Of a DNA stretch of 64,000 bases, positions 13,645 to 13,722 are shown piece after piece. The position numbers and the translations under genes were made by a program. The notes under the pieces were generated by a model. That model searched no databases. It saw only the letters and a list, made by a program, of their open reading frames with translations, and had not been told where the DNA came from. How positions within the stretch are numbered: position 1 is the stretch's first letter; the number at the start of each line of letters is the position of its first letter. This stretch comes from Escherichia coli (GTDB taxonomy: Bacteria > Pseudomonadota > Gammaproteobacteria > Enterobacterales > Enterobacteriaceae): NCBI RefSeq assembly GCF_044324875.1, contig NZ_CP172185.1; one strand, 5' to 3'.

Positions 13645-13722
13645 GCGCCGGATGCGGTTACGTCGCATCCGGCAATCGGTGCTGGCGGCCTGATGCGGCG
13701 TAAACGCCTTATCAGGCCAACC
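13645..13722. repeat. REP/BIME-type extragenic palindromes
   Basis: Two imperfect palindromes (gccggatgcggttacgtcgcatccggc and cctgatgcggcgtaaacgccttatcaggcc) matching the enterobacterial REP consensus, between convergent yceF and rluC. Confidence 0.65.

Follow-up and report, generated by a model that had tools for sequence, protein, structure and literature searches.

The window, by which we mean the whole stretch of 64,000 nucleotides analysed here, is a segment of the Escherichia coli chromosome that runs in the orientation opposite to the K-12 order. Its genes were identified from open reading frames (ORFs) together with BLAST searches against 5,426 complete E. coli genomes. The genes yceF (plus strand) and rluC (minus strand) converge on a spacer of 111 nt, and the pairs lpxL>mdtG (both plus) and opgH>yceK (both minus, spacer of 172 nt) are tandem. 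A preliminary description of the window had reported REP-like imperfect palindromes at 13645..13722 (yceF/rluC) and 46076..46172 (opgH/yceK), together with a REP-like hairpin at about 43960..43990 after lpxL, and had placed them at several convergent gene ends. We find palindromes at all three sites, at most 1-2 nt away from these coordinates. The convergent arrangement, however, applies to yceF/rluC only, as the two other sites lie between tandem genes. All REP elements are located 4-28 nt past stop codons, and none of them overlaps the ORF of any known gene. The genes (from ORFs and BLAST) and the features between them are as follows:

13636-13638, plus strand: stop codon of yceF
13647-13673, minus strand: REP1 of REP101, a degenerate y-type REP, GCCGGATGCG-n7-CGCATCCGGC, with a perfect 10-bp stem and a 7-nt loop
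13674-13687, strand not applicable: 14-nt linker of REP101, AATCGGTGCTGGCG, aligned to the naRNA4 linker AAcGGUGCCGACU
13688-13721, plus strand: REP2 of REP101, a z-type REP, GCCTGATGCGGCGTAAACGCCTTATCAGGCCAAC, with 1/23 mismatches
13750-13752, minus strand: stop codon of rluC
Upstream of REP99 on the minus strand: trhO
41720-41751, minus strand: REP99, a short REP-armed hairpin, TTGCCGGATG-n5-CATCCGGCAA, 6 nt past the trhO stop
43949-43951, plus strand: stop codon of lpxL
43959-43989, plus strand: REP98, a degenerate REP-like hairpin (-19.8 kcal/mol, z = -4.2)
From 44123, plus strand: mdtG
Plus strand: msyB
46009-46011, minus strand: start codon of yceK
46030-46058, minus strand: intrinsic terminator hairpin, AAAAATACCGGC-n5-GCCGGTATTTTT (-18.2 kcal/mol, z = -3.6)
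46076-46109, plus strand: y REP of the BIME-1, GCCGAATGCGGCGTGAACGCCGTATCCGACCTAC, with 3 departures from the consensus
46110-46144, strand not applicable: 35-nt L linker of the BIME-1, with an IHF core consensus and a match to Rfam ES036
46145-46173, minus strand: z1 REP of the BIME-1, GCCTGATGCGCTACGCTTATCAGGCCTAC, the exact z1 consensus including the CTAC foot, with 0 mismatches
46184-46186, minus strand: stop codon of opgH

A classical REP is an imperfect palindrome of 30-40 nt with the consensus GCC(G/T)GATGCG...CTTATC(C/A)GGCCTAC (PMC12306157), and we follow published definitions for the y, z1, and z2 REPs and for BIME-1 and BIME-2 (PMC3333891). A formal scan with the published arms GCCKGATGCG ... 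TTATCMGGCCTAC (gap 2-24) covered both strands of the window and scored 23 arm positions, with 100 dinucleotide shuffles as background. At 3 or fewer mismatches out of 23, the window contains exactly three matches—i.e. 13688-13721 (1 mismatch), 46076-46109 (3 mismatches), and 46145-46173 (0 mismatches)—where the shuffles yield a mean of 0.02. The scan that the preliminary description had proposed thus returns three canonical REPs rather than nothing above background. A covariance model was also made, for which 18 REPs from at least eight species served as the seed. Because its seed includes the three canonical REPs of the window, their E-values are not independent evidence, and only the low scores of elements outside the seed, which we give below, are informative. 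The model also matches 30218-30249, a palindrome of the plain kind that lies between flgN and murJ and is not a REP.

Folding yields a consistent picture, with all four transcribed strands at the three sites (both strands in the case of yceF/rluC) beating their shuffles (z = -4.2 to -5.4) and 0 of 200 shuffles being as stable as the native fold on each strand. Fold energies range from -47 to -54 kcal/mol for yceF/rluC (both strands) and for the BIME-1 (opgH strand). The CTAC foot, which reads GTAG on the other strand, is found in both opgH REPs (CTAC at 46106-46109 and GTAG at 46145-48); elsewhere it reads CAAC in REP2, is missing from REP1, and, owing to a single additional base, is out of place in the lpxL hairpin (GGCATTAC). 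No run of T follows any REP hairpin at the three sites, and hence none of these has the U-tract of an intrinsic terminator. Altogether, the three sites are confirmed as E. coli REP/BIME elements that are ordinary and already known, because REP101 and REP98 are both listed for K-12 and the opgH/yceK element matches a canonical BIME-1. This also bears out the view that such palindromes are typical for E. coli.

The doublet between yceF and rluC is listed in K-12 as REP101 (yceF/rluC, convergent, 1145929-1146003; 2026 preprint supplement). The K-12 element maps to 13646-13720 of the window at equal length and with a single substitution, which lies in REP1 (GCCGGATGCG in the window vs. GCCGGATGTG in K-12). 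REP1 starts 8 nt past the yceF stop and has neither a stem mismatch nor a GTAG/CTAC foot, and REP2, whose only departure from the classical consensus is the foot CAAC for CTAC, ends 28 nt short of the rluC stop. From the folding of both strands, the REP2 hairpin is contained in yceF and rluC transcripts alike, and no U-tract terminator is present in the spacer. The REP101 query finds one place per genome by megablast, a search that is blind to 30-nt copies at ~80% identity in a database of 28 Gb.

The Rfam model naRNA4 (RF02564), which covers the y-linker-z2 unit of REP325 (PMC4550694), aligns with 13646-13718 at 54.9 bits (E 1.6e-9 in a 181-nt search) and just misses its gathering score of 59.5. 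As this alignment runs from end to end, the yceF/rluC pair can be taken as one BIME-2-type unit. REP101 shares with BIME-2 and REP325 the order of its parts—i.e. a y-like palindrome, a linker of 13-14 nt, and a z-type REP—but it is a single unit in the 111-nt spacer and not a tandem array, its y half is shorter by 3 nt and has neither foot nor stem mismatch, and the inner stem of its z half (GCGGCGTAAACGCC) is y-like and not that of a z2 REP. Like the REPIN/RAYT (TnpAREP) substrates, REP101 is an inverted doublet able to form a larger hairpin, its arms at 13654-13673 and 13688-13707 being 85% complementary. However, binding and cleavage by TnpAREP need a GTAG foot and a two-base stem mismatch (PMC3333891), and REP101 departs from this in both halves, REP2 having the foot GTTG/CAAC and REP1 a perfect stem with no foot. 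The z1 REP at opgH retains both the GTAG foot and the stem mismatch.

BIME-1 elements (also RIP or RIB) consist of inverse z1 and y REPs with a long L linker, often carrying an IHF site, and occur as a single unit per locus (PMC3333891). The element between opgH and yceK agrees with this definition, as it is one unit made of z1, a 35-nt L linker, and an inverted y; it differs by the decay of its y REP. The z1 REP starts 10 nt past the opgH stop, the y REP is inverted relative to it, and the two feet face the L linker. Among the departures of the y REP, GACC for GGCC is found in all three strains compared, and the other two are private to this strain. The L linker has the IHF core consensus WATCAANNNNTTR in the form of AATCAACACATTG at 46122-46134 (one of only 7 matches in 64 kb), where K-12 has AATCAATAAATTG, and judging by this motif it is probably bound by IHF at the DNA level. 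Matches to the BIME-1 segment number 17 per E. coli genome in the median, so that a lack of further copies, which would have overturned its identity, is excluded.

Within the 3'UTR of opgH, the BIME-1 precedes an intrinsic terminator that is conserved. The latter, at 46030-46058, sits between the BIME-1 and the yceK start codon, is not a REP, and is the only hairpin here that is followed by a U-tract, as expected of an intrinsic terminator. Given the A/T runs on either side, it is potentially bidirectional. This terminator was recognised from an inverted-repeat search and folding, as the automatic terminator scan did not flag the hairpin.

The preliminary description considered the copy number and exact position of these palindromes to be strain-variable and useful as lineage markers. 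Comparison of occupancy across E. coli reveals a different situation. When occupancy is defined as at least 80% coverage of a 201-nt query, of which the REP pair represents 37%, the yceF/rluC pair is retained in 5,418 of the 5,426 complete genomes (99.9%). Likewise, with at least 80% of a 271-nt query (BIME-1 = 36% of the query), the BIME-1 at opgH/yceK is retained in 5,352 of 5,426 genomes (98.6%), with ~73 genomes besides RM10410 falling under 80% query coverage. The lpxL hairpin is too small for a coverage criterion to inform; at this locus, 39 of 39 evenly spaced records are ungapped over 241/241 bases of the query, and the presence of the hairpin is no less than about 97%.

The variants are few in kind. 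REP2 has lost its 3' arm through a deletion of 11 nt (CAGGCCAACCG) in an allele that is matched at 95% or more in about 304 genomes; all of the sampled carriers (4/4) are O157:H7. Strain Z142-1 has an IS3-family element in the REP101 linker, with the target duplication GGC, and this is the sole IS insertion found. In RM10410, a precise 127-nt deletion between two copies of TTTTTATTG (46054-46062 and 46181-46189) has eliminated the whole BIME-1. Its junction is present in 1 of 5,426 genomes, a count obtained with a 45-nt query that is unable to seed on one flank alone (a 120-nt query could not separate the alleles). Other variation at these loci consists of point substitutions. None of the complete genomes is identical to the window at 99% or more over the BIME-1 region because of the two private changes in the y REP of the window.

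The presence of these elements at the three loci is therefore almost fixed in E. coli, and this near-fixation can be explained by vertical descent alone. As such, variability in copy number and position is largely unsupported at these loci. Use as lineage markers stands for SNPs and small indels within E. coli, or from the species level upward, where the spacers show wide differences, and falls for presence or absence of the REPs at these loci, which makes no useful strain marker inside E. coli.

We then have the same spacers in other species to consider. For yceF/rluC, a pattern for the YceF C-terminus gave 120 loci, one per species, whose spacers were read by eye, and the opgH/yceK and lpxL spacers of relatives were reached via YceK homologues and contigs. 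In E. albertii, the yceF/rluC spacer contains a single REP that is orthologous to REP2 and has an intact CTAC foot. Citrobacter, Superficieibacter, a Pseudocitrobacter MAG, and Cedecea have other REP pairs or BIME-1-like units at this place, and Pseudocitrobacter faecalis, Siccibacter, Phytobacter, and Yersinia have a plain terminator hairpin only. At opgH/yceK, E. marmotae has L and y and lacks z1, and Salmonella has one z1-like relic. The terminator at 46030-46058 is kept in E. albertii, E. marmotae, and Salmonella, and the REP content next to it differs. After lpxL, Salmonella has a normal intrinsic terminator and no REP. REP hairpins are akin to intrinsic terminators in that they are stable, G+C-rich, and directly 3' of a gene, and true terminators occupy that position in relatives.

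With identity, position, folding, and conservation established in this analysis, we regard it as very probable that these are vertically inherited E. coli REP copies serving as local 3'UTR hairpin elements. Their likely role, one that is already known for REPs, is that of a 3'-end hairpin that ends transcription and blocks exonucleases. The REPs would be transcribed as the tails of upstream mRNAs and would form stable, G+C-rich hairpins without a U-tract. Such hairpins would most probably pause or terminate transcription, with Rho contributing in part, and block 3'-to-5' exonucleases, so that the upstream message would be protected; the yceF-rluC palindromes would act in this manner in both directions. 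The hairpins located 4-10 nt past the yceF, opgH, and lpxL stops may also stall terminating ribosomes, leading to less translation. Translation is reported to be lowered by REPs that lie no more than 15 nt from a stop codon (Liang et al. 2015, as summarised in PMC12306157), and given these short distances the same damping may apply here. At these copies, mRNA stabilisation, translational damping, and IHF binding are what we infer.

Data from K-12 are consistent with a role at transcript ends. The stretch of the window that includes the REP2 hairpin (13680-13723) is identical to K-12 1145926-1145969, which figures among the bidirectional terminators tabulated for convergent genes, here yceF and rluC (2026 preprint supplement). 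In K-12, a Rho-utilisation peak with a bicyclomycin-sensitive transcript is situated 47 nt past REP101, on the strand that carries rluC read-through, and REP98 has a Rho-utilisation peak at a distance of 13 nt (2026 preprint supplement). Elsewhere in the genome, REP325 is a partly Rho-dependent terminator that stabilises upstream mRNA, and REPs go with higher expression of both genes when these are convergent and with upstream-biased expression when the pair is tandem (2026 preprint). According to the same work, terminal REPs are not generally tied to longer mRNA half-life, and their effects are strongly context-dependent (2026 preprint). At opgH, a good intrinsic terminator lies just downstream in the 3'UTR, and therefore the BIME-1 may add little. 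The loss of the REP2 3' arm in about 304 genomes and of the BIME-1 in RM10410 also indicates that the elements are dispensable. The plain terminator hairpins that relatives without REPs bear at the same places fit functional equivalence between the two kinds of hairpin.

The REP elements may instead be selfish or neutral relics, a reading that we hold to be possible though doubtful. In its favor, several copies have lost features that TnpAREP requires (CAAC in REP2, and a REP1 that is footless and has no stem mismatch), and the opgH y REP is altered by GACC for GGCC plus its two private changes. Moreover, deletions are tolerated, and the spacers of other genera differ in the type, number, and orientation of their REPs, with some being REP-free, a pattern that fits repeated insertion and loss. 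This reading accounts less well for the published K-12 data, which locate transcript ends and sites of Rho utilisation on these copies or next to them, or for the terminator hairpin found at the same spot in REP-free relatives, from which a hairpin is apparently needed there. It is also at odds with paired changes that preserve the stems—e.g. GCCAGAT...ATCTGGC in E. albertii. A selfish origin is nonetheless compatible with service as 3'UTR hairpins, as the REPs may have arrived as selfish elements and been put to use later.

The assignment of the weaker hairpins to the REP family needs separate consideration. REP98 has an exact stem of 9 bp (13 bp when wobbles are included) and a loop of 5-13 nt, begins 7 nt past the lpxL stop, and has no U-tract, with mdtG following on the same strand. 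In K-12, REP98 is listed as lpxL/mdtG, tandem, at 1115627-1115653 (2026 preprint supplement); it maps to 43960-43986 of the window at equal length and with 2 substitutions (GTATCCGG in the window, GCATCCGG in K-12). REP99, at the convergent end of trhO and yceI, was absent from the list in the preliminary description. It is identical to K-12 1117862-1117893, which is listed both as REP99 (trhO/yceI, convergent) and as a bidirectional terminator (2026 preprint supplement).

On sequence alone, REP1, the lpxL hairpin, and REP99 are weak members of the REP family. REP1 (13647-13673) and the lpxL hairpin each have 5/23 mismatches in the consensus scan, and with 1.26 such matches per window expected by chance, neither is singly above background. 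In the covariance model of 18 REPs, the lpxL hairpin scores 12.9 bits (E ~0.8), REP1 12.6 bits (E ~0.9), and REP99 9 bits (E ~6). It could thus be argued that the lpxL hairpin is no REP but an ordinary hairpin at a gene end, which shares the GCCGGAT/ATCCGGC arms by chance, and that the same extends to REP1 and the trhO hairpin. Consistent with this, Rfam has no match at the lpxL hairpin, neither the CTAC foot nor the inner GCGRCG...CGYC stem is present, and the query for the lpxL spacer finds one place per genome by megablast, although the last point is weak, since short, diverged REP copies are undetectable in such a search.

We consider this chance resemblance to be unlikely for several reasons. 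The K-12 tables name both REP98 and REP99, and the naRNA4 doublet model aligns REP1 as its y half, linker included, which rescues the membership of REP1. The lpxL hairpin retains the GATG/TATC wobble typical of REPs, as well as a TAC two bases past the stem. In E. marmotae, the site after lpxL has a clearer REP, in the orientation opposite to that of the window and with about 3 arm mismatches by manual count. The membership of REP98 rests on its K-12 listing and on this REP at the same site in E. marmotae, and this hairpin in the 3'UTR of lpxL is best explained as a REP that has decayed.

One rearrangement of REP101 departs from the pattern of stable copies. In SCPM-O-B-8794, which is labelled 'E. 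coli' in GenBank (locus L081) and belongs to a divergent Escherichia lineage, a 61-nt core of REP101 is inverted relative to the window. The inverted core extends from REP1 through the linker into REP2, of which it takes in the 5' half, and is identical at 59/61 positions to the reverse complement of 13647-13707; a comparison of strands agrees with the inversion. The YceF of this lineage is identical to ordinary E. coli YceF, and the inverted REP101 is found in 0 of the 5,426 complete E. coli genomes. This in-place inversion in one divergent lineage is the only mildly unusual point among our observations. That REP doublets flip in place and act as a switch, via recombination between the inverted arms or via RAYT, strikes us as highly improbable. 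If such flips were to recur, the pairing of hairpins with stop codons would be swapped, which would create a small heritable switch in the relative expression of two converging genes.

Finally, there is scarcely any likelihood that these sites are small-RNA genes—i.e. a naRNA4-like RNA from REP101, acting with HU in DNA condensation, and an ES036/CssrF sRNA transcribed from the BIME-1 linker on the plus strand and antisense to the 3' end of opgH—for even though naRNA4 with HU has been reported to condense DNA (PMC4550694) and Rfam ES036/CssrF matches the L linker region (46110-46152) at 45.7 bits, above its gathering score of 37.6, the naRNA4 match stays under its own threshold, no promoter-like site is found in the yceF-rluC or opgH-yceK spacer, REP325/naRNA4 is without effect on nucleoid volume or REP-REP contacts (2026 preprint), and a literature search gave no paper on the function of ES036/CssrF. 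Because both Rfam models describe pieces of a multi-copy repeat, their matches show membership in the repeat and not an independent gene, and we read the ES036/CssrF match as the model describing the repeat itself.

Beyond good annotation, these results add little, as the features are already known and ordinary. Nevertheless, naming them correctly as REP101, BIME-1, REP98, and REP99 avoids mistaking the sites for new regulatory RNAs or terminators. Clean lineage and species markers do exist at these loci, namely the 11-nt deletion carried by about 304 genomes and the REP content of the spacers in E. albertii, E. marmotae, Salmonella, and Citrobacter. Across these bacteria, the short spacer that follows the gene has repeatedly come to hold REPs or else a plain terminator hairpin, in keeping with the known theme of REPs as substitute 3'-end hairpins.

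The REP101 element, a y-type REP1 and a z-type REP2 separated by a 14-nt linker (13647-13721) between the convergent yceF and rluC genes, has been rearranged in different ways in other strains. In strain Z142-1, an IS3-family insertion sequence encoding a transposase with a programmed frameshift (L006:1150-2573, L006 being the locus compared from this genome) lies inside the linker that separates REP1 and REP2, at a site corresponding to window 13684-13686, and is flanked by a 3-bp target duplication, GGC. L081:1058-1168, a locus from SCPM-O-B-8794, a divergent lineage deposited in GenBank as "E. 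coli", carries the core of the element in inverted orientation: REP1, the linker and the 5' half of REP2 together match the reverse complement of window 13647-13707 at 59 of 61 positions. The inversion is seen in this one draft assembly only, and the same arrangement is found in no complete E. coli genome.

The BIME-1 between opgH and yceK (46076-46173) also varies. We find that strain RM10410 (L131:485-493, in the locus compared from that genome, a site equivalent to window 46054-46189) has lost the whole element through a precise 127-nt deletion between two 9-nt direct repeats, TTTTTATTG, such that the opgH stop codon now directly adjoins the terminator hairpin. Of the 5,426 complete E. coli genomes searched, only that of RM10410 has this deletion. 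In the window itself, the y REP of BIME-1 (46076-46109) carries two substitutions, GCCGAATG and CCGTATCC, that are absent from both K-12 and the closest strain, 7/2; one of these creates a C-G pair at a stem position that is a C/T mismatch in the REP consensus. No complete genome reaches 99% identity over the 271-nt BIME-1 region, although stretches elsewhere in the window are matched at 100%.

Compared with K-12, mdtG (44123-45326) has a 23-bp deletion, TGATGGGGCTGGCACAAAATATC, at window 44420/44421. With its reading frame broken into two ORFs, 44123-44482 and 44430-45326, mdtG is probably a pseudogene in the window. It also appears that no other complete E. coli genome has this deletion, since the top-ranked matches to a 121-nt mdtG query among the 5,426 genomes are all in two pieces that span 144 nt.

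Two further convergent gene ends carry hairpins:
41720-41751, between trhO and yceI: REP99, a short REP-armed hairpin, TTGCCGGATG-n5-CATCCGGCAA
30197-30235, the 39-nt spacer between flgN and murJ: a hairpin that is a perfect palindrome, TCCGGCCTGCA-C-TGCAGGCCGGA

The first is identical in sequence to K-12 REP99, and K-12 lists give both as bidirectional terminators. REP99 is missing from the preliminary description of REP-like repeats. The flgN/murJ hairpin is not a REP. K-12 tables also assign REP100 to the flgF-flgG spacer (24920-25055); its sequence, CCCTCACCCTAACCTCTCCC...GGGCGAGAG, belongs to a repeat class different from classical REP, and it was picked up neither by the REP consensus scan nor by the REP model built in this analysis. 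In Enterobacter cloacae and E. asburiae, similar units, CCCTCTCCC/GGGAGAGGG, occur between yceF and rluC.

Rfam matches at the gathering score include the following features:
14921-15257: rne 5'UTR element
12892-13060, opposite strand to yceF and overlapping its start region: SraB sRNA
36953-37002: PyrC leader
56250-56341: ES056 sRNA
61941-62025: tRNA

Two Rfam matches fall on the repeats themselves: naRNA4 (CssrE) covers a y-linker-z2 unit at 13646-13718, and ES036 (CssrF) covers the L linker and the start of z1 in BIME-1, at 46110-46152. Both "sRNA" families appear to model parts of REP/BIME elements, and matches to ES036 or naRNA4 are to be read as repeat membership.
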